Part shown: positions 4,435 to 38,881 of the stretch, one piece after another
Position numbering within the stretch: position 1 is the first letter of the stretch
How the letters are laid out: every line of letters begins with the position of its first letter
Assembly (NCBI GenBank): GCA_044507815.1
Contig: JBIQIX010000001.1
Location: forward strand, 207,124 to 271,123
DNA: 64,000 nucleotides
Direction: 5' to 3'
Source of the DNA: Flavobacteriales bacterium
Lineage (GTDB): Bacteria; Bacteroidota; Bacteroidia; Flavobacteriales_F; PHOS-HE28
The notes under the pieces: generated by a model
What the model saw: the letters and a program-made list of their open reading frames with translations, nothing else
What the model was told of the DNA's origin: nothing
Databases searched by the model: none
Program-made: the position numbers and the translations under genes

Positions 4435-4864
4435 GCAAGAGCGTTGAACGCCAGGCAAAGTAAGGCACCGGGCTGGGCACGGGCCTGCTTGGCCATGCCG
4501 GTGGCCGGTAGGCGCTGGAAGTGGTGAACCTTCCTGGCGCCTGCGGCACCGCTCCCGCGTGAGGGACAGGAGCGGCGGCCGGCCACTGGCGTGCCGCAAG
4601 GCGTGCAGCGTGCGAGGAGGCTGCGACGCAGGAGCAGACCCCGCAGCCGCATGCACGCCCGGCAGGCCGGGGCCGCCACAGCGGATGGCCCGACCGCTTG
4701 CTTGACGGCCACCGCCGGCCTGCCCCGGTACGCCGGGCCGGCAAGCAAGCGGGCACGCCCAAATACCGCCTGACCCCCTGTTGCGCCGGGTGCCGCAGCA
4801 CGGGCACAGCGATGACCTGCATCAGAAAAGCGGGCCTATCGGTCCCGTACCTTTGCACCTTGAA

Positions 4865-6739
4865 ATGGATACGATCCAACCGACCAGTGGGAAGACCACT
4901 GAAGTACGCGAAAAAGTGGTGATCCTGTTTGCCGGCGACAGTGGCGACGGGATCCAGTTGACGGGGAGCCAGTTCACGGATACGAACGCACTTTTCGGCA
5001 ACGATGTAAGCACGTTCCCCAATTACCCGGCGGAGATCCGCGCGCCACAGGGCACCATTGCCGGTGTTAGCGGCTACCAGCTGCACTTCGGCAGTGTTGA
5101 CGTATTCACCCCCGGCGACCAGTGCGATACGCTGGTGGTGATGAACGCGGCCGCGCTGAAGGCCAACCTGGCCAAACTGAAGAAGGGCGGGACGATCATT
5201 GCGAACAGCGATGGCTTTGACAGCAAGAACCTGCGCTTGGCGGGCTACGCCGAGGAGGCGAACCCGCTGACGGACCACAGCCTGGACAACTACGTGCTGC
5301 ACACGGTGGATGTAACGAAGCTGACGCGCAACGCCCTGGAGGGCACCAGCCTGGGCATGAAGGAAAAGGACCGCAGCAAGAACATGTTCGTGCTGGGTTT
5401 CGTGCATTGGATGTACGGGCGCAAGCTGGACCGGCCGAAGCTTTTCCTGGAGCGCAAATTCAAGAGCCGGCCCGAGCTGCTGGAGGCGAACCTGGCGGTA
5501 CTACAGGCGGGCTACAACTTCGGCGATACGAGCGAGACCTTCACCACGCGGTACGAGGTGAAGCCCGCACCCATGCCCAAAGGGCACTACCGCAACATAA
5601 CGGGCAACCAGGGCGTGGCGATCGGGCTGATCGCCGCGGCGCAGAAGGCGGGGCTGGAGCTGTTCTACGGCAGCTACCCGATCACCCCGGCCAGCGACAT
5701 CCTGCACGAATTGTCGCGCAACAAGCATTTCGGGGTGAAGACCTTCCAGGCGGAGGATGAGATCGCGGCGGTATGTTCCTCCATCGGTGCGAGCTACGGC
5801 GGGGCCTTGGGCGCCACCGCCAGCAGCGGCCCCGGCATTGCGCTGAAGACCGAGGCCCTGGGCCTGGCGGTGATGCTGGAGATACCCTTGGTGGTGGTGA
5901 ACGTGCAGCGGGGCGGGCCCAGCACGGGCATGCCCACCAAGACCGAGCAGGCCGACCTTTGGCAGGCGGTGCACGGCCGCAATGGCGAGGCACCCATGCC
6001 GGTGCTGGCGGCCAGCAGCCCCACCGATTGCTTTGAAATGGTGTTTGAGGCGGCCAAGCTGGCCGTGGAGCACATGACGCCGGTGATGCTGCTGACGGAC
6101 GGCTACATAGCGAACGGGGCGGAGCCATGGCGCTTTCCCGAGGCGAAGGACCTGCCGGCGATCAAGCCGCCCTACGCCAGGCCGCACGAGGGCGGCGAGG
6201 AGGCGCCCTTCCTGCCCTACGAGCGCGATGGGCGCGGGGTTCGGCCCTGGGCCGTACCCGGCATGCGCGGCTTGCAGCACCGGATCGGCGGCATTGAAAA
6301 GGAGGACAAGACAGGCAACATCAGCTACGACCCGCAGAACCACCAGTTGATGGTGCGGCTGCGCGCCGGGAAAGTGGCGCGGATCGCGGATACCTACCGG
6401 CCGATCCGGCTGGACAGCGGCCCGCCCAACGGCGAACTGCTGGTGGTGGGCTGGGGTTCCACATACGGGGCCATACGCACGGCCGTGCTGGAGCTGCAAC
6501 AGGAAGGTTTCAGCGTGGCGCATGTGCACCTGCGCCACATGTTCCCCTTCAACCCGGGCCTGGGCGGCCTGCTGAAGCGCTACAACAAGGTGCTGGTGCC
6601 CGAAATGAACAATGGACAGCTGCTGCAGATGCTGCGCGCCGAATACTTAGTGGACGCGCAGGGCCTGAACAAGGTGCAGGGGCTGCCCTTCACCAGCGAC
6701 GAGATCCGCACCGGGGTGCTCAACTTGTTGACACAATGA
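4865..6739 (+). CDS. korA: 2-oxoglutarate:ferredoxin (2-oxoacid:acceptor) oxidoreductase alpha subunit
   Basis: Long conserved match pattern to KorA (…GYQLHFGS…DTLVVMNAAAL…GPSTGMPTKTEQADL…); start at MDTIQPT (ATG 4865). Confidence 0.8.
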   Translation: MDTIQPTSGKTTEVREKVVILFAGDSGDGIQLTGSQFTDTNALFGNDVSTFPNYPAEIRAPQGTIAGVSGYQLHFGSVDVFTPGDQCDTLVVMNAAALKANLAKLKKGGTIIANSDGFDSKNLRLAGYAEEANPLTDHSLDNYVLHTVDVTKLTRNALEGTSLGMKEKDRSKNMFVLGFVHWMYGRKLDRPKLFLERKFKSRPELLEANLAVLQAGYNFGDTSETFTTRYEVKPAPMPKGHYRNITGNQGVAIGLIAAAQKAGLELFYGSYPITPASDILHELSRNKHFGVKTFQAEDEIAAVCSSIGASYGGALGATASSGPGIALKTEALGLAVMLEIPLVVVNVQRGGPSTGMPTKTEQADLWQAVHGRNGEAPMPVLAASSPTDCFEMVFEAAKLAVEHMTPVMLLTDGYIANGAEPWRFPEAKDLPAIKPPYARPHEGGEEAPFLPYERDGRGVRPWAVPGMRGLQHRIGGIEKEDKTGNISYDPQNHQLMVRLRAGKVARIADTYRPIRLDSGPPNGELLVVGWGSTYGAIRTAVLELQQEGFSVAHVHLRHMFPFNPGLGGLLKRYNKVLVPEMNNGQLLQMLRAEYLVDAQGLNKVQGLPFTSDEIRTGVLNLLTQ

Positions 6740-31352: not shown

Positions 31353-31518
31353 TACTTGGTGTGTGGCACAGGAAAGATGTAGGGGAGCTTCCCCCTGTGC
31401 AGGCGGCTTTATGATCGTAACTGGCCCTTGTGCTATTTGAACTAATTCACACGGTATCCGATACATTGTATGGACCAGCCTTGATTGGTACCCTCCAATT
31501 CCTATCTTGCGTCTTGTG

Positions 31519-33069
31519 ATGGCTGCCATGCGTTATACCATATTGAGTTGGATCTTGAACCTCTGTTTGGTTCAATGCACCGCGCAGACCGGTGCTGGCA
31601 TAGTCACACCCACGCATGGACAAAGTCTCTTGGAACGATATGCCAACTGGCCCGAGGTATACATGCTGCATCAGCAGCAGGCATTGTTTAGCCCCACGCT
31701 CACCCCGTTCGGCTGGCAGGAAAACCCGGCGGTCACTTCCTTGAAAGAGCAGCTCATGCGTCCCCGCAAGCCCACCATGGCCGAAGAGGTCGCTCAACGG
31801 CAGCAGCAAGCCGCCTTCCCGCCGCAACCGGCGGACCCCAATGCCACCAACGCCAGCCGGAACCCGTGGAACACCCAAGCCCTGCGGAACCCGAACGACG
31901 AACTGCGGGAACTGGCCGCAAACCTCAACGCGGTGGCCACGGTCAATGACCGCATGGACCGCTCGGGTTACTACGCCACGCAAGCGTACAAGGAAGACCT
32001 CCAACGGTACCAGGCCGCCTTCAACCAACTGCAGGACATGCTGGAAGGCCGGGCGGCCCTGTCCATTGCCGATGCCCGCTACATCGTGGAGTCGGCCTAT
32101 GGCGGCCTGCCCATGGACCATCAGGCGTACAAGGCCGAGATCGATCGCTCCGCCAACTTCATCCGGCAATGGATGCACGAGAACGGCATGGACGGCCGGA
32201 ACCCTGATGCCGTCAACCTGGCCATCCAGAAATTCATGGGCGATAGCCTCACCATTCGGAACGGCAAAGGCATGGACCGCTCGCGGACGGCGGGGCTTCC
32301 CACGATGCACGTGCCTTTCAAGTACGACTACATCGACTGCCGGGCCGTTGAGGACCTGCACAACCATTTCCTCACCAAGACCCTGGCCACCGGCACCGGC
32401 CAGTGCCTCACCCTGCCCTATGTCTACCTCGTCCTGGCCGAGGCCCTGGGCGTTGAGGCCCACCTTTCCTTCATGCCGCAGCATGCCTTCATCAAGTACC
32501 GCAACAGCAAGGGCGTCATGGAGAACTACGAGACTACGGTGGACTGGCACATGAGCGACAATGAGTACATGGAAAGGATGCCCGTGATGTCATCCGCACT
32601 GGCCAAAGGGATCTATCTTCAACCCCTGAGCAGGGAGCAAACCGTTGCATCCATGATGATCGACCTCGCGGATTGCTATTACCGGGAACATTGGGTGGCC
32701 GACGGTGCCTTCATGGAGCAGTGCATCGACCATGCCATGCCTTGGTTCAAGAACGGCGAAGGCAACCGGGAGGGATTGTTGCTCCGCAATCTCGTGCGGG
32801 CCTCGCAGTTGGACAGGGTGCTGCAGAAGCAGGGCATAGTTGACCTGGGGCAGATCGCGGGGAACCCGGAGGCGGAACGCGCATACCGCGCTTTCCGCGC
32901 GAGCGCGGATCGTATATCCGAGCTCGGCATCCAGGATTTTCCGGAAGAGGTGTACAATGTCATGCTGGAAGAGCATGATGCGCGGGGGCGATTACAACAA
33001 GCCCAAGGAATAGATACAAAAGCCGCCCGTTCCCTTTTCATTCCTGCAACAAACCCCGCCCACCGATGA
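31519..33069 (+). CDS. secreted transglutaminase-like (papain-like Cys/His/Asp) protein, paralog A
   Basis: Signal peptide MAAMRYTILSWILNLCLVQCTAQT; …GTGQCLTLPYVYLVLAEALGVEAHLSFMPQHAFIKYRN…ENYETT… C…H…acidic pattern; paralogous to next gene. Confidence 0.55.
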   Translation: MAAMRYTILSWILNLCLVQCTAQTGAGIVTPTHGQSLLERYANWPEVYMLHQQQALFSPTLTPFGWQENPAVTSLKEQLMRPRKPTMAEEVAQRQQQAAFPPQPADPNATNASRNPWNTQALRNPNDELRELAANLNAVATVNDRMDRSGYYATQAYKEDLQRYQAAFNQLQDMLEGRAALSIADARYIVESAYGGLPMDHQAYKAEIDRSANFIRQWMHENGMDGRNPDAVNLAIQKFMGDSLTIRNGKGMDRSRTAGLPTMHVPFKYDYIDCRAVEDLHNHFLTKTLATGTGQCLTLPYVYLVLAEALGVEAHLSFMPQHAFIKYRNSKGVMENYETTVDWHMSDNEYMERMPVMSSALAKGIYLQPLSREQTVASMMIDLADCYYREHWVADGAFMEQCIDHAMPWFKNGEGNREGLLLRNLVRASQLDRVLQKQGIVDLGQIAGNPEAERAYRAFRASADRISELGIQDFPEEVYNVMLEEHDARGRLQQAQGIDTKAARSLFIPATNPAHR

Positions 33070-35186
33070 AGGCCGTCCGCGCCCCGCTCCTGTGTCTCGC
33101 CCTGCTGGCCACCACCGCCACATTCGCGGGCCCGGACACGCTTTTCCAACAGGCCTATGCCGAACTGCAGGGCATGCTGGAAGGCAACCAACCCGCCAGC
33201 TTTGAGCGGGCGGTGTACATATCCGAGGCCGCCTACTTGGACGACACGATCGGATATGACAATTTCCGGTCCACGCTGGATGCCTACCAGTACTTCATCG
33301 GGCAGTTGGCCAAGGCGAACGACGGCTCGGACACCATGGACTTCCGCGTGCCGGTACCCCGCACCGGCCGCTTGGACATCCGCACCTTGAAGCATACCGA
33401 GGGGGAGAAGCGGGCGCTCTACCGCAACGTGCTGCACAACTGGGCCATCTTCGCCTTCCTCACCGACACCACCCGGTTCTGGGGCTTTGAGCACCTGCCC
33501 CTCGGCTACCAGTATGCCGACCCCTTCGGCATGCGGGACTGGCGCAATTCACAGGTGACCAACCTCCTTTTCGGCAAGGAGCGCAAGGGCAACTGCTTCG
33601 CGCTGGTGGCGCTGTACAAGATCCTTGCGGACCGCCTGCACAGCGGGGCCTATATCTGCACGGCGCCGCAGCACATCTACATCCAGCACCAGGACCATAA
33701 GGGCGACTGGTACAACGTGGAACTGGCCACCGGCACGCACCCCGGCGACGGATCCATCAAGACCCTGACCTACACGTGGAACGAGGGCATCACGAGCGGC
33801 ATCGCCCTGCGGCGGCTCAAGGAGGAGAGGCAGAACATTGCATTGTGCTTGGTGAACCTGGGCATGGGCCATCAGCACAAATTTGCCAAGCAAGGCGATG
33901 CGTTCGCGCTGCAATGCGCCGACCTTGCACTGAAGCACGACCCGAAGAACCTCAACGCCATGCTGCTGCGCCAGCAGGTGCTGGAAGAGCGGGTGGCCGT
34001 GTATGCTGCGGGGAAGAACCTCACGAAGGTTGAGCAGCTGCGGAAGACTCCTGCTTTCCCGCAACTGGAAGAGCAAGTGGTGCAGTTGAACGCACTGGGC
34101 TACCACCCGATGCCGCGCTACATGCAGGAGATCATCCTGGCTGAATTGGGGCACAGCGACAGGGGGCCGTATATCACCAAGAACCGCACGCCCGATCCCT
34201 TCCCCAGCCTCAAGAACGCGCCCCCCGAGGACAAGCGGTACTCCACGCTCTCGCTCGGGCGGTTTGAGGAAGTGCATGAGCAGAAAAGGGTAGAGGAGTA
34301 TGGCCGGGTGACATTGGATACCGAAGCGAAGCGGATCACGGAGTTCCGTCCCAATGCCCAAGAGGAGCTCCTGATAGACCCGGTGGCCTTCGCGTGGAGC
34401 ATTGACCCGCTGGCGGCGAAGTATCCGATGTATTCGCCGTACCACTTTTCGTCGAACCAACCTATTCATGCCCCTGAATTGGAGGGCATGGAATCCGCAT
34501 GGGACTTGAACTCGCGCGATCCCAACTATCAGAGGATGAGCCCAGCGCAACGCAAGGAGTTTACGGATCGGACCTATGGGCCATTTGCAGATGGGCTTTT
34601 CATGGCAGCTACCGTATCTCCTGCAGGGGTTGCAATGCGTGGTGCATGGGCCGTTGGTGGCTGGCGTGCCCTATTGGGTGTGACAACAAAGGAATTAGTA
34701 GAGGAAGGGGTCAGCCGAGCGTTTCAGAATGTTACGGGCATTCCATTGGTCGTATCGCCGATGGATATGTTACGGGCGGCTCGAAAAGGAAGTAAGTTCA
34801 TCGGCAACCTTGCAGACCTCAAGCCACATGAGCGGCAACGTGCTGCTGAGTATCTGCAAGGTGGTAGTGTGTTGGAGCGCACTGATATCCCAGGTACTGG
34901 GGGGGCTGACTTCAGGATTGATGGAAAGCTGTCGGAGTTCAAATCCCTGCAAGGAGAATCAGTAAATCATACAACTGGGCTGGGGCGACTTCAAGAAGCT
35001 ACAAAAAAACCAGGCGTTCAGGTGATAGACTTAGACATCCGCACTCCAGGGGGGACTTCAAATGACGCAACGACTATCTATGATCGGTTTTCAGGTACCG
35101 ACCAAGGGAAGTCATTCCTTGGTGGAGGCGGGGAAGTACGCATTGCAACACAAGATGGGTTGGTAAGCTTCGGGACTAAACATTAA
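33066..35186 (+). CDS. secreted transglutaminase-like protein, paralog B, with compositionally distinct ~240-aa C-terminal extension (candidate toxin domain)
   Basis: ATGA overlap with paralog A; N-terminal ~450 aa align with paralog A (GNCFALVALYKILADRL…APQHIYIQHQD…WYNVE); from ~34440 GC falls to ~50%. Confidence 0.55.
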   Translation: MKAVRAPLLCLALLATTATFAGPDTLFQQAYAELQGMLEGNQPASFERAVYISEAAYLDDTIGYDNFRSTLDAYQYFIGQLAKANDGSDTMDFRVPVPRTGRLDIRTLKHTEGEKRALYRNVLHNWAIFAFLTDTTRFWGFEHLPLGYQYADPFGMRDWRNSQVTNLLFGKERKGNCFALVALYKILADRLHSGAYICTAPQHIYIQHQDHKGDWYNVELATGTHPGDGSIKTLTYTWNEGITSGIALRRLKEERQNIALCLVNLGMGHQHKFAKQGDAFALQCADLALKHDPKNLNAMLLRQQVLEERVAVYAAGKNLTKVEQLRKTPAFPQLEEQVVQLNALGYHPMPRYMQEIILAELGHSDRGPYITKNRTPDPFPSLKNAPPEDKRYSTLSLGRFEEVHEQKRVEEYGRVTLDTEAKRITEFRPNAQEELLIDPVAFAWSIDPLAAKYPMYSPYHFSSNQPIHAPELEGMESAWDLNSRDPNYQRMSPAQRKEFTDRTYGPFADGLFMAATVSPAGVAMRGAWAVGGWRALLGVTTKELVEEGVSRAFQNVTGIPLVVSPMDMLRAARKGSKFIGNLADLKPHERQRAAEYLQGGSVLERTDIPGTGGADFRIDGKLSEFKSLQGESVNHTTGLGRLQEATKKPGVQVIDLDIRTPGGTSNDATTIYDRFSGTDQGKSFLGGGGEVRIATQDGLVSFGTKH

Positions 35187-35189
35187 GCC

Positions 35190-35432
35190 ATGGCACGCTG
35201 GACCTGTATATGTGGAGAAGTAATGAGCAACTCCAACAATCCTGAAATACAGTACAAGGTGTTTTCGGATGATGAGTGGATTGCATTGATGGATACGCAA
35301 ATCGAAGACCCTGCTCGCGATATCAAATGGCCACGATTTTTCTATTGGCAATGCCCAAAGTGCCGTCGGCTCCATTTCTTCGATCAGAATTTGGATAACC
35401 GGGTCGAAATCTATCGCCCTGAATACCCATGA
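35190..35432 (+). CDS. small zinc-ribbon protein (CxCG…CPKC), tandem paralog 1; candidate immunity/partner protein
   Basis: MARWTCICGEVMSNSNNPEIQYKVFSDDEWIALMDTQIEDP…WQCPKCRRLHFF; ~50% identical to next ORF; low GC. Confidence 0.5.
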   Translation: MARWTCICGEVMSNSNNPEIQYKVFSDDEWIALMDTQIEDPARDIKWPRFFYWQCPKCRRLHFFDQNLDNRVEIYRPEYP

Positions 35433-35508
35433 GCATGCAGTGCCTATCCTCGTGTCCCATTTTGGGAGATCAGATGGCCCTTCAACATTTACTGGACAAT
35501 GAGCTACC

Positions 35509-35790
35509 ATGGCTAGAATCACTTGCCGGTGCGGTCGAGCATTAAGTAACTCAAATCATCCGGAGGTTGAGTATCAGGTATTTAATGATGCCGAATGGCA
35601 TAGGCTAATGGCATCGAAGATTAACGACCCATTAGTCGATATCGAATGGCCCGAACTCTCATTCTGGAAGTGTTCCCGATGTGGCAGACTACACCTGTTC
35701 AATGGGGATAGTGACATGCCAATAGCCGCCTATGTTATCGAGCCCATATCGCCTGGAGAATCAGGTTTGGATTCCCAAGGTCAAGGATGA
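35509..35790 (+). CDS. small zinc-ribbon protein (CxCG…CSRC), tandem paralog 2
   Basis: MARITCRCGRALSNSNHPEVEYQVFNDAEWHRLMASKINDP…WKCSRCGRLHLF; paralog of 35190..35432. Confidence 0.5.
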   Translation: MARITCRCGRALSNSNHPEVEYQVFNDAEWHRLMASKINDPLVDIEWPELSFWKCSRCGRLHLFNGDSDMPIAAYVIEPISPGESGLDSQGQG

Positions 35791-35866
35791 GGGTTGTATA
35801 CCATCGACATGGGCGCAAAAGAAGGCGCTGCCCCTTTGAGCTTCTGCAACATGGAACGTCAAATCA

Positions 35867-36253
35867 TTGATGGTCAGTAAGGCCAAGGATGTAGTGTATT
35901 TGGAAACCGAGTTCGTGAAGTTGGTGCGACACTACTTCGCCTTCCTTAGGGACATAGGCTACGCTGAACCAACCATTGAGTGGCAAGAATCGGCCTTCTT
36001 TGTCTCTTGGATCGACTTAAACTACGCGGCTCCTTCTCTTAATCGAAATTGCTGTGTTTCCCTGTTCCTTAAGCAGGATGAGGGTAGTATACAACTCTCT
36101 CTGTTACAAAACGAGTATCGTACCCTCAACGACTATCTCGACTTTCAGATGTATATGAAGAAGCGCGTTGGAACACCGGTTCCACGGACCTTCCCGTTAT
36201 CAAGCGCTCAGAGAGTGACCTGGTCCGAGCATTCGAGGAGGTCATCCGCTTGA
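35867..36253 (+). CDS. small hypothetical protein in low-GC tract (possibly 3'-frameshifted)
   Basis: 128-aa ORF, AT-richer codon usage; a protein-like reading (…SDLVRAFEEVIRLNAQALREHGRGLVDGSAWEAGYYQRKD) continues in another frame to 36330. Confidence 0.35.
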   Translation: MMVSKAKDVVYLETEFVKLVRHYFAFLRDIGYAEPTIEWQESAFFVSWIDLNYAAPSLNRNCCVSLFLKQDEGSIQLSLLQNEYRTLNDYLDFQMYMKKRVGTPVPRTFPLSSAQRVTWSEHSRRSSA

Positions 36254-36650
36254 ATGCCCAAGCACTTCGCGAGCATGGCCGAGGGCTGGTTGATGGTAGT
36301 GCATGGGAGGCCGGGTACTACCAGCGGAAAGATTAACCGGTAATGTTCCAGATTGTTGCATGACAACTTCCATAAAAACCCAGAATGAGGCTTCAATGAT
36401 GTGCAGGTCAATCGATCCCTTCCCCAGCCTCAATGTAAGCTCCCCCTGATCAGGTACACGGGTTGGTAAAGGTCGGCATTTCGCCGGGATGTTTGTTTGG
36501 TAGTTTCTCGATCTTTGCTGTACCGGTGATAACGGAAGCAGGCACTGCTGGAGAGCAACCTGCCAGGGATAGGCCGGTGACCGGAGGATGAACATGGGTA
36601 TGGGCGATTTGCCCTGCCCCGTCCTTTGGTCCAATGCCTTGAAAAACTCA

Positions 36651-37514
36651 TTACGCGGCAGGCTGGTCCAGCAGGAAGGTTGGAAAGTGCGTCCGGCTCC
36701 CGGTAAATGCGGCCAGCATCGCCCCGTACTTCATCAGGAACTCCCGCGGGGTGAGGTCAAGCAGGGAATCGTGTGGTCGTTCTTGGTTGTAGCTCCAGAT
36801 GAACTGTGCCGTAAGGGCGTGCAGTTGCTCAAGGTCCTCGAACAGGTAGGCATCAAGCACTTCCTCCCGGTAGGTCCTGTTGAAGCGCTCGACCAGACCG
36901 TTCTGCATGGGACGCCCCTTCTCGATGAAGGTCAGCCCGATGCCATTGCGCTCTGCCCAGAGTTCCAATTCATGGGCAATGAACTCCGGGCCATTGTCCA
37001 CGCGCAAACGTTCGGGCTTGCCACGCCACTCGATCAGCTTGTCCAGTGCACGGATCACGTACTGCGACCGGATCGAGGTGTCCACCGTGATGTTCAGGGC
37101 CTCGCGGCCGAAGTCGTCGATCACGTTGAAGGTGCGCACGTTGGTGGCGTTCAAAAGCCGGTCGGCCATGAAATCCATGCTCCAAGTGATGTTCGGACCG
37201 ATGGGAAGGCACAGTGGTTGCTTCACTCGCTCCGGCACGCGTCTTTTGGTGGGCCGGCGCAGGTTGAGCCCGGCCGTGGTGTAGAGCCGGTGCAGCCGTT
37301 TGTGGTTCACCACGCGGCCATCCTTGCGCATGCGCTTGTACACCTTCCAAAAGCCCCAACTGGGCTTCTTCGTCACCCAGGCATTCATGTGCTCGATCAC
37401 CTCTATGTCGTCCTTGGGGCTGGGCACATAGCGGTATACGCTTTGGCTCAACCCCAGCAGTTTGCAGACCCGCCGAACACTGTGCTTGCACTGCGTCACA
37501 AGCCAATGTGCCAT
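36651..37514 (-). CDS. IS3-family transposase OrfB (DDE integrase core)
   Basis: …ITWSMDFM…VDNGPEF…LVERFNRTYREEVLD… rve-domain signature. Confidence 0.85.
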   Translation of the reverse strand: MAHWLVTQCKHSVRRVCKLLGLSQSVYRYVPSPKDDIEVIEHMNAWVTKKPSWGFWKVYKRMRKDGRVVNHKRLHRLYTTAGLNLRRPTKRRVPERVKQPLCLPIGPNITWSMDFMADRLLNATNVRTFNVIDDFGREALNITVDTSIRSQYVIRALDKLIEWRGKPERLRVDNGPEFIAHELELWAERNGIGLTFIEKGRPMQNGLVERFNRTYREEVLDAYLFEDLEQLHALTAQFIWSYNQERPHDSLLDLTPREFLMKYGAMLAAFTGSRTHFPTFLLDQPAA

Positions 37515-37533
37515 TCCCGCTTCTCGACGAGCC

Positions 37534-37800
37534 CTAGGGCTTTTTTCCCAGGATCTCCTTTAGGATGGCCTTGTCCAGGGTGAGGTCGGCCACCTTCAGC
37601 TTCAACTTGGTGTTCTCCTCCCGCAAGGCGCGCAGCTCCTTGAGTTCGCTCACGCCCATGCCGCCATACTTGGCCTTCCACTGGTAGAAGGTGGGCTGGC
37701 TCACGCCATGTTCCCTGCAGATCTCGGCCACCTTGCGGCCTTGTTCATGTTCGCGCAGCATCGCCACGATCTGCGCTTCCGTCCATTTGCTCTTCTTCAT
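37534..37800 (-). CDS. IS3-family transposase OrfA (HTH)
   Basis: MKKSKWTEAQIVAMLREHEQGRKVAEICREHGVSQPTFYQWKAKY… canonical IS3 OrfA; ends …LKEILGKKP at the AAAAAAG site. Confidence 0.85.
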   Translation of the reverse strand: MKKSKWTEAQIVAMLREHEQGRKVAEICREHGVSQPTFYQWKAKYGGMGVSELKELRALREENTKLKLKVADLTLDKAILKEILGKKP

Positions 37801-38050
37801 TGTTCCAAAGTTCAGGTGTTGGTGTGGATCCTACTTATCCACGCACCTGATTTCGGGGGAGCTTACAATGCAGCTCGAATCAGCGGTTGCGCGAACCCCT
37901 TCCCGGTATTGGGCCTAGGCACGGCGGCCAACGCCTTGTGTTGCATTTAGGAGCTATGCTGGAACCATGCACCACCAACTGCCGGATAATCCGTCAGTGC
38001 AAGGTCGGGGAAAGTGTCATAACTTTGCTCTGTCAATACCCATTCACACC

Positions 38051-38881
38051 ATGAGTGCACATCCCTACTTCGGCCCCAACATCAAGCTGCTGCGCACACG
38101 CCGCGGCCGCTCGCAGGAAGAAACCGCCACCGGACTGGACGTGAAACGCTCCAGCTGGAGCGGCTATGAGAACGGCAGCGCCGAGCCCTCGTTGGACCTG
38201 CTGGTGCGCATCAGCAGCTACTTCCGCGTGGGACTCGACCGCCTGCTGAAGGACGACCTTACCCAACTGAGCGAAAGCCAGCTCAGCATCTTGGAGCGCG
38301 GTGGCGATGTGGACCTCAGCGGCAGGCGCCTTCGCGTGCTGGCCAGTACCGTGGACCAGGCCGACCGCGAGAACATCGAGGTGGTGCACGAAAAGGCGAA
38401 AGCGGGGTACGCCCTCGGCTATGCCGATCCCGAGTACATCAGCGTGCTGCCCACCTTCCAAATGCCCTTCCTCAGCCGCGACCGCAAGTACCGCACCTTC
38501 CAGATCAGTGGCGACAGCATGCCACCGGTGGGCGAAGGCTCGTGGGTGACCGGGGAGTATGTGCAGAACTGGCAGACCATCCGCGATGGCCAGCCCTACA
38601 TCATTGTTACCAAGGAGGACGGCATCGTGTTCAAAGTGGTGTACAACCAGCTGAAGACCACCGGAGGGCTGTTGCTGTGCAGCACCAACCCGGCCTATCC
38701 GCCCTACGAGGTGCCCATCGCCGATGTGTTCGAGGTGTGGAAGTTCGTCAACTTCATCAGCAGCGAGCTGCCCGAGCCCAACCTCAGCCGCGATGAACTT
38801 TCGCGCAGCGTGATGGACCTGCGCAAGGAAGTGGGCCAATTGCGCATGGCCATGGAGAAGCAGGGCCGCTTGGCACTGTGA
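38051..38881 (+). CDS. XRE-family HTH regulator fused to S24 (LexA/UmuD-like) peptidase domain
   Basis: N-terminal HTH_3 (…LRTRRGRSQEETATGLDVKRSSWSGYENG…), C-terminal …FQISGDSMPP… Ser nucleophile motif of S24. Confidence 0.7.
   Translation: MSAHPYFGPNIKLLRTRRGRSQEETATGLDVKRSSWSGYENGSAEPSLDLLVRISSYFRVGLDRLLKDDLTQLSESQLSILERGGDVDLSGRRLRVLASTVDQADRENIEVVHEKAKAGYALGYADPEYISVLPTFQMPFLSRDRKYRTFQISGDSMPPVGEGSWVTGEYVQNWQTIRDGQPYIIVTKEDGIVFKVVYNQLKTTGGLLLCSTNPAYPPYEVPIADVFEVWKFVNFISSELPEPNLSRDELSRSVMDLRKEVGQLRMAMEKQGRLAL

Follow-up and report, generated by a model that had tools for sequence, protein, structure and literature searches.

What is the function of two adjacent, related mini-proteins with four cysteines each that are encoded directly behind a large, apparently secreted protein of a Flavobacteriales bacterium? 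The question is raised by a stretch of 64,000 nucleotides (nt) from contig JBIQIX010000001.1 (GenBank assembly GCA_044507815.1; positions 207,124 to 271,123 of the forward strand), which as a whole we call the window and whose own numbering is used throughout. An original prediction, made from the letters alone, had read the two genes as a duplicated immunity gene for a toxin at the C-terminal end of the upstream protein. Our analysis supports this interpretation through the assignment of a nuclease domain and through the adjacency of toxin domain and mini-protein gene at 17 loci: the mini-proteins most probably constitute an immunity family for polymorphic toxins with a CdiA_C/PF18451-type PD-(D/E)xK C-terminal (CT) domain, with the first of the two copies as the probable cognate partner here. 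The features at the centre of this reading are as follows.

33066..35186, plus strand: 706-amino-acid (aa) chimeric toxin gene, an open reading frame (ORF) that BLASTP splits in two
34398..34493, plus strand: Rhs-core-end motif IDPLAAKYPMYSPYHFSSNQPIHAPELEGME, which starts the exchangeable C-terminal cassette
34746..35183, plus strand: predicted PD-(D/E)xK nuclease toxin core, CdiA_C-like, aa 561-706 (Foldseek, Pfam, conserved columns)
35190..35432, plus strand: zinc-ribbon mini-protein copy 1, 80 aa, probable cognate immunity protein
35509..35790, plus strand: zinc-ribbon mini-protein copy 2, 93 aa, intact diverged paralogue

The original prediction described the pair correctly throughout. 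The coordinates and the quoted sequences of the two adjoining ORFs were confirmed, and their identity, put at about 50%, amounts to 37 of 75 positions (49%, with 69% positives, gap-free, BLASTP E 2e-30), a similarity so far beyond chance that the two copies must be a true paralogous pair. The four cysteines said to form a zinc ribbon (C6, C8, C55 and C58, in the arrangement CxCG ... CxxC) are present in both copies and fall on hairpin knuckles in the structural model described below. Copy 1 indeed lies directly downstream of 33066..35186, starting 3 nt past its stop codon and in the same frame. The DNA is AT-richer, as had been noted, since the GC content drops from ~0.62 to 0.46-0.49 between ~34400 and ~36300 (47% in the low-GC block versus 62%), and the drop sets in where the Rhs-core-end motif ends (nt 34493). 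The description of the upstream protein as secreted goes back to a signal-peptide-like N-terminus, judged by eye.

This upstream protein of 706 aa consists of the signal-peptide-like N-terminus, a transglutaminase-like domain (aa 15-368), a linker, the Rhs-core-end motif and the C-terminal toxin. In BLASTP searches, aa 24-368 match a 520-aa neighbour encoded in the window as well as 376- and 448-aa proteins of a contig from a Flavobacteriales metagenome-assembled genome (MAG; L008), with 24% identity between the 520-aa ORF and aa 27-367; aa 445-706, in turn, match a short toxin of L008 and are homologous to short toxins of other Bacteroidota. The motif IDPLAAKYPMYSPYHFSSNQPIHAPELEGME is the sole Rhs-core-end motif in the six frames of the window, which is devoid of Rhs repeats. 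In L008, a YD-repeat (Rhs) ORF of 1807 aa ends with the same motif, and in all homologues (P0157-P0172) the motif stands ahead of the toxin domain. The 706-aa gene looks like a CT/immunity cassette fused in frame to a transglutaminase-like gene.

The last ~160 residues of the protein are conserved in 16 clusters, where E589, R592, E595, D615, E624-x-K626, D655, D657 and R659 are invariant or nearly invariant (residue numbers are CT numbering plus 476, so that E113/E119, D139 and E148-x-K150 are the corresponding positions in CT numbering). In an AlphaFold2 model, the toxin core reached values of 93-98 in the predicted local distance difference test (pLDDT), with the secondary structure, in CT numbering, running from a helix (111-122) through three strands (127-129, 140-142 and 145-151) to a second helix (159-170) and a last strand (177-181). 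The top Foldseek match of this core in the PDB was 4g6v_A (probability 1.00, E 2e-3, target-normalised template modelling score 0.66), followed by restriction endonucleases with weak scores, and the Pfam family CdiA_C (PF18451) matched 11 of 15 toxin homologues at E <= 0.01 (best 5.8e-8). According to this modelled fold, the C-terminal ~160 aa of 33066..35186 are predicted to be a PD-(D/E)xK nuclease toxin domain.

A survey of gene neighbourhoods placed a mini-protein homologue directly behind the same toxin domain at a total of 17 independent loci, on the same strand and with a gap of -40 to +20 nt. In the close subfamily, whose loci were recovered through the toxin domain, all seven toxin loci (the window, L008, L009 from a Saprospiraceae MAG, L011, L012/L013, L014 and L015) have a mini-protein gene 2-11 nt downstream, and the L014 pair adjoins a DUF6443/Rhs protein. 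For the distant subfamily, metagenome contigs were scanned with a sequence pattern, which gave 51 loci (42 unique); according to crude gene calls and local hidden Markov model searches, the immediately upstream ORF encoded a homologous toxin at 10 of the 42 unique loci. Toxin-linked distant members, where measured, share 31-42% identity with copy 1, so that the association persists although the partners have diverged to about 30% identity, and eight of eight distant toxins scanned passed the gathering score of Pfam CdiA_C with 30-45 bits. One distant toxin is a 644-aa protein with a Cu_amine_oxidN1 domain. The N-terminal parts of the linked toxins differ (Rhs/YD with DUF6443, short signal-peptide forms, transglutaminase-like, Cu_amine_oxidN1), and the mini-protein follows the CT domain regardless of the N-terminus, which is the signature of an immunity protein and not of an export adaptor. 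The 17 mini-proteins are all acidic (isoelectric point 4.4-5.7), as nuclease inhibitors usually are. At one of these loci, L015, positions 1-1644 upstream of the toxin/zinc-ribbon pair encode a Lipase_3/Tle3-like protein with the same Rhs-core-end motif, which indicates that this locus holds several exchangeable toxin modules.

How widespread are the mini-proteins themselves? A word-indexed search of 5.8 billion proteins returned only six close clusters, and an exhaustive HMMER search with a profile of seven sequences against 1.84 billion cluster representatives (clusters at 50% identity) returned 208 family clusters at E <= 1e-3 and 47 at E <= 1e-10. Family members are mostly 75-100 aa long and span the full profile. 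An alignment of 48 sequences shows C8 and C55 to be invariant, and C6, G9, P18, W53, C58, R60 and Y75 to be conserved in at least 90%. The original prediction did not recognise a Cys4 immunity family of this kind, and the profile libraries agree with it: neither copy scored above threshold in Pfam, NCBIfam, PADLOC or PHROGs. There was likewise no match among PDB sequences, where searches up to E <= 10 with the single sequence and with the profile gave only chance ribosomal and helicase knuckles. A Pfam scan of the 48 members yielded scattered sub-threshold matches to many unrelated zinc-ribbon models, located on the CPxC knuckle; the best of these, all below threshold, were DUF7479 in eight members (E of at least 0.0018) and Rubredoxin in one (E 0.0027). 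In RefSeq, the member from Polycladospora coralii carries the name 'hypothetical protein', and one homologue is labelled 'rubredoxin' by one source. No description of a zinc-ribbon immunity protein for Rhs toxins or for toxins of contact-dependent growth inhibition (CDI) was found in the literature searched, and the 2012 catalogue of Zhang et al. mentions no zinc-ribbon Imm family (PMC3482391). Judged by their sequences, the mini-proteins are members of an uncatalogued Cys4 zinc-ribbon family of ~80 aa.

Several other identities were considered and rejected. A rubredoxin is ruled out by the CxC spacing of the first knuckle, the long insert and the lack of any above-threshold match. The genes also do not represent fragments of a larger rubredoxin or transcription-factor gene, an outcome for which the original prediction had allowed, as they are stand-alone genes of ~80 aa in most clusters. 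A phage protein was dismissed for want of a match in PHROGs or BFVD, and a defence-system component because PADLOC gave only noise (E > 0.01); the Pfam matches to Bact_hydrolase and DUF6431 (E 0.05-0.08) are noise as well.

The AlphaFold2 model of the mini-protein, built on the 48-sequence alignment, has a mean pLDDT of 85.5. It begins with a hairpin (3-5/11-13) that bears the CxC at its turn, continues with a strand (21-23) and two helices (27-35 and 41-44), and ends with a second hairpin (50-54/61-65) that carries the CPxC and a last strand (71-75). The modelled layout is that of a zinc ribbon with a family-specific insert of one strand and two helices (21-44) between the knuckles, and the mini-proteins would be expected to bind zinc. 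Like zinc ribbons and rubredoxin-like knuckles, they are predicted to present two Cys-pair knuckles on beta-hairpins; unlike these, their first knuckle is CxC instead of CxxC, and both the 35-residue strand-helix-helix insert and the C-terminal strand are family-specific. Foldseek found no significant relative in the PDB (430 hits, best E 0.4, trivial hairpin matches to WD40 blades), and no significant fold relative among the viral models of BFVD.

Which of the two copies would protect against the toxin of the window? Copy 1 is 78-80% identical to the mini-proteins behind the two nearest toxins, whose CTs are 69-78% identical to that of the window. Copy 2 is only 48-54% identical to the same two mini-proteins, and its nearest relative is P0003 with 62%. 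Across loci, the pairwise divergence of the toxin domains and that of the mini-proteins are correlated (r 0.80, Mantel p 1e-4), with copy 1 on the trend and copy 2 off it. As the identity of copy 1 tracks the divergence of the toxin CT, copy 1 is the probable cognate immunity protein of the window toxin, and copy 2 appears as an older, diverged paralogue.

Further features of the cassette and its surroundings are listed here.

31507..33069, plus strand: stand-alone transglutaminase-like paralogue, 520 aa, given for context only (Pfam Transglut_core2 E 9e-7, above threshold)
35867..36253, plus strand: third small ORF of the low-GC block, 128 aa, no family match, module membership uncertain
36426..37875, minus strand: IS3-type insertion sequence (IS), right-hand cassette boundary, with overlapping transposase ORFs (orfA 37534-37800, orfB 36651-37514)

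A comparison with Logan contigs of a second strain delimits the part of this cassette that has stayed together. Positions 34423-35822, which comprise the toxin CT, copy 1 and copy 2, differ at ~6 of 1400 positions, and the toxin/zinc-ribbon block shows 0-1 differences per gene between the strains. The flanks of the shared block differ by 18-30%: the 75 nt to the left of 34423 contain 13 differences, and the third ORF, to the right of the block, differs at ~113 of 370 positions (~30%). The toxin and both copies are therefore maintained or moved as one unit. The third ORF encodes 128 aa in the window and 155 aa in a contig of 99.6% identity (L002, 1566-2033; also L003), with a frameshift or indel near 36205; it may be a replaced allele or a hypervariable gene, and is possibly another immunity-type gene. 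The IS at the right-hand boundary is framed by inverted repeats of 21 nt that are 86% complementary (36426-36446 and 37855-37875), and its assignment to IS3 is a reading of the transposase sequences.

In the mechanism that we propose, a low-GC cassette of Rhs-core-end motif, toxin domain, copy 1, copy 2 and third ORF would have become fused in frame to a secreted transglutaminase-like protein, and the toxin domain would act as a metal-dependent nuclease that is delivered to competitors. Copy 1, translated just after the toxin, would bind the nuclease domain 1:1 in the cytoplasm of the producer and neutralise it by occluding either the catalytic E/D/ExK cleft or the nucleic-acid-binding face, much as CdiI proteins, which are unrelated to it, do for the 1026b and E479 toxins, and would thereby protect the producer and its kin. 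Copy 2 would most probably either protect against a related toxin allele of competitors (homogeneous poly-immunity) or act jointly with copy 1.

The latter option, a two-domain (hetero-dimeric) inhibitor in which both copies act jointly on a single toxin, has to be weighed against the former. Two copies are fused in one polypeptide in ~22 of the 150 best family representatives, and in these proteins the N halves most resemble the N halves, and the C halves the C halves, of other fused proteins, so that the two-domain form must be old and maintained. Fused two-domain versions are seen in P0012, P0014, P0031, P0033, P0044, P0069, P0115, P0117 and P0153, as well as in L050 and L054. A fused double stands directly behind the toxin in L054 and two separate mini-protein genes do so in L028; in the window, moreover, copy 2 has been conserved along with the toxin and copy 1. 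A 161-aa ORF downstream of the toxin in L043, in which only one zinc-ribbon domain was resolved, is not a confirmed double. However, the mini-protein is single-domain in 13 of the 17 toxin-linked loci, the other four being the window, L028, L043 and L054 (the 13 include L044, where the toxin ORF is partial and cut by the contig end, and L037, where the toxin is a 75-aa upstream fragment with a weak match of E 8e-6). One domain thus appears to be enough, which favours dual specificity in the sense of homogeneous poly-immunity over the cooperation of two ribbons, and we consider a joint inhibitor rather unlikely. Fused or tandem immunity domains are, besides, known from poly-immunity loci without implying cooperation (PMC3482391). 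Less likely again is an extension of the same idea, according to which the family would be a structurally new class of nuclease-toxin inhibitor, a zinc ribbon with a helical insert and no solved relative, that clamps one toxin with two ribbons and whose members without a toxin, such as the copy between topoisomerase subunit genes, were recruited as regulators of cellular nucleic-acid enzymes. We also see only a slim chance that copy 2 is a functionless duplicate in decay. The window holds no cognate toxin for it, and the frameshift in the neighbouring third ORF points to some decay in the block, but the ORF of copy 2 is intact, retains all family-conserved residues and shows one amino-acid difference in total across 10 further contigs, and its relative P0003 exists elsewhere.

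A number of observations weigh against assigning the whole family to toxin immunity. The toxin domain of the window itself reaches only 18.2 bits (E 0.0029) with PF18451, under the gathering threshold of 26.6 bits, and is placed as a divergent relative by transitivity, because its homologues and the distant linked toxins match that family. A mirror-tree correlation such as that between toxin domains and mini-proteins would arise between any pair of linked genes. The 706-aa carrier is accompanied by no recognisable secretion-system marker in the window, so that the cassette may be displaced or orphaned here and not in use. In ~70% of the distant subfamily no toxin lies next to the gene, which is what the original prediction had named as counter-evidence, and a few members lie in ordinary operons, among them P0050 between gyrB/parE-like and gyrA/parC-like genes in two contigs (L020, 5001-5246; L021, 444-689), and P0182 between two xylose-isomerase-like TIM-barrel genes of a sugar-transport operon (L016, 5001-5267). 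Such members fit the notion of an orphan immunity gene less well, and the fold may have other uses.

These loci also argue for a small zinc-ribbon protein of general use that has its own role in the cell, in the regulation of nucleic acids or enzymes, to which the adjacency to toxins would be incidental or secondary. The upstream genes of the remaining distant loci are heterogeneous (AbiEii, ClpB-like, ROK and others), in keeping with such a role. Their downstream neighbours, in turn, include SUKH proteins (SMI1_KNR4, SUKH_5, SUKH_6), WapI, Imm70, CdiI_ImmP, an Rhs protein and an EndoU toxin, and in a Polycladospora coralii isolate (L073, JACXAG020000008.1, 240-12258) the homologue sits in an array of 19 small ORFs in one direction that also holds ComJ, DUF2750, DUF4291 and an Ntox8 fragment. 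By its gene content, this array reads as a poly-immunity-like island, and orphan immunity genes are normally seen in the company of known immunity families. The counter-evidence named in the original prediction was found in part, but several of the members without an adjacent toxin lie in just such arrays. Two further loci illustrate the range of neighbourhoods. The close homologue in L001 is an orphan behind an M1-type peptidase-like gene (HExxH motif read by eye) and adjoins a DUF1493-like ORF (weak, E 0.03, below threshold) and a putative ParD/ParE-type pair, of which only the second gene matches ParE_toxin. In L017-L019 (~4571-5267), the homologue overlaps by 14 nt an upstream ORF of 147 aa that has no Pfam match and could encode an undescribed partner. 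What speaks against a purely general role is that a rare toxin domain lies immediately upstream at 17 of ~50 independent loci across distant lineages, which is not chance; in addition, none of the 48 members matched a nucleic-acid-binding family in the Pfam scan, and the acidic charge argues against DNA or RNA binding. We hold this alternative to be very improbable. Equally improbable, in our view, is that the mini-proteins help the toxin, as an export chaperone or adaptor or as an activating cofactor. Adjacency to the toxin would also fit an obligate partner, and some CDI toxins need a partner protein for activity. A passage of PMC4961446 names CysK as such a partner of the UPEC536 toxin. The mini-proteins, however, are acidic, start a few nt after the toxin stop, and are also found toxin-less, as orphans, next to genuine immunity genes. 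An adaptor belongs to the delivery module at the N-terminus and its gene usually lies upstream, whereas here the partner goes with the CT domain whatever the N-terminus. Immunity against PD-(D/E)xK toxins thus remains the reading that we prefer.

How does this system compare with those already known? The sister toxins TA271 and YPIII, which have the same fold, are DNases, so the substrate of the window toxin is not fixed by its fold and may be tRNA or DNA. The closest structural counterpart, the toxin of Burkholderia pseudomallei 1026b, is a tRNase that depends on Mg and cleaves tRNA-Ala in its acceptor stem, and in the complex 4G6V its immunity protein contacts active-site residues of the toxin (PMC9086364). 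Our system resembles this CdiA-CT/CdiI pair in having a toxin with the same PD-(D/E)xK fold and, judged on its homologues, of the same Pfam family, and in a small acidic protein encoded directly downstream that would be expected to block it. It differs in that the immunity partner is a predicted Cys4 zinc ribbon without a sequence match to any PDB chain; the 1026b CdiI (4g6v_B) was not among the 50 best of the 430 Foldseek hits for the mini-protein, all of which had E > 0.3. Immunity proteins of different PD-(D/E)xK CDI toxins are mutually unrelated (PMC9086364). The carriers differ as well: instead of the CdiA filament of 1026b, they are Rhs-type or chimeric in Bacteroidota and of other types in Firmicute-like contigs.

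With Rhs/YD cassettes (PMC3482391), the locus shares the core-end motif before a variable CT, the downstream immunity gene and the lower GC content of the cassette, along with orphan immunity genes, homogeneous and heterogeneous poly-immunity arrays and an adjacent IS element. In contrast to those cassettes, the window has no Rhs repeats of its own, the cassette being fused to a transglutaminase-like protein, and the families of that catalogue (Imm1-74, SUKH and others) gave no Pfam match to the mini-proteins. What we describe is most probably a new immunity family within a well-known kind of toxin/immunity system, and the concept of how such systems work is unchanged. Its value is that a family of ~200 clusters (at 50% identity), whose RefSeq annotation offers no function, obtains a name and a testable one, and that a metal-dependent zinc-ribbon fold would be added to the immunity repertoire against PD-(D/E)xK toxins. 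Toxins of the PF18451 type, which have been characterised only from CDI in Burkholderia, would further be extended to carriers of the Rhs and other types in Bacteroidota and in Firmicute-like organisms, and a profile of the family would point annotators of genomes to toxin/immunity cassettes and poly-immunity islands.

Two observations concern the surroundings of the cassette. Tandem secreted transglutaminase-like (Transglut_core2) paralogues flank Rhs-type cassettes both in the window (31507-33069 and 33066-34170) and in L008 (10874-13263), and such paralogues may serve these Bacteroidota toxins as a conserved accessory or carrier. To the right of the IS, a 304-aa ORF (37967-38881) resembles a helix-turn-helix protein with an S24 (LexA-like) peptidase, including a GDSMxP motif recognised by eye.

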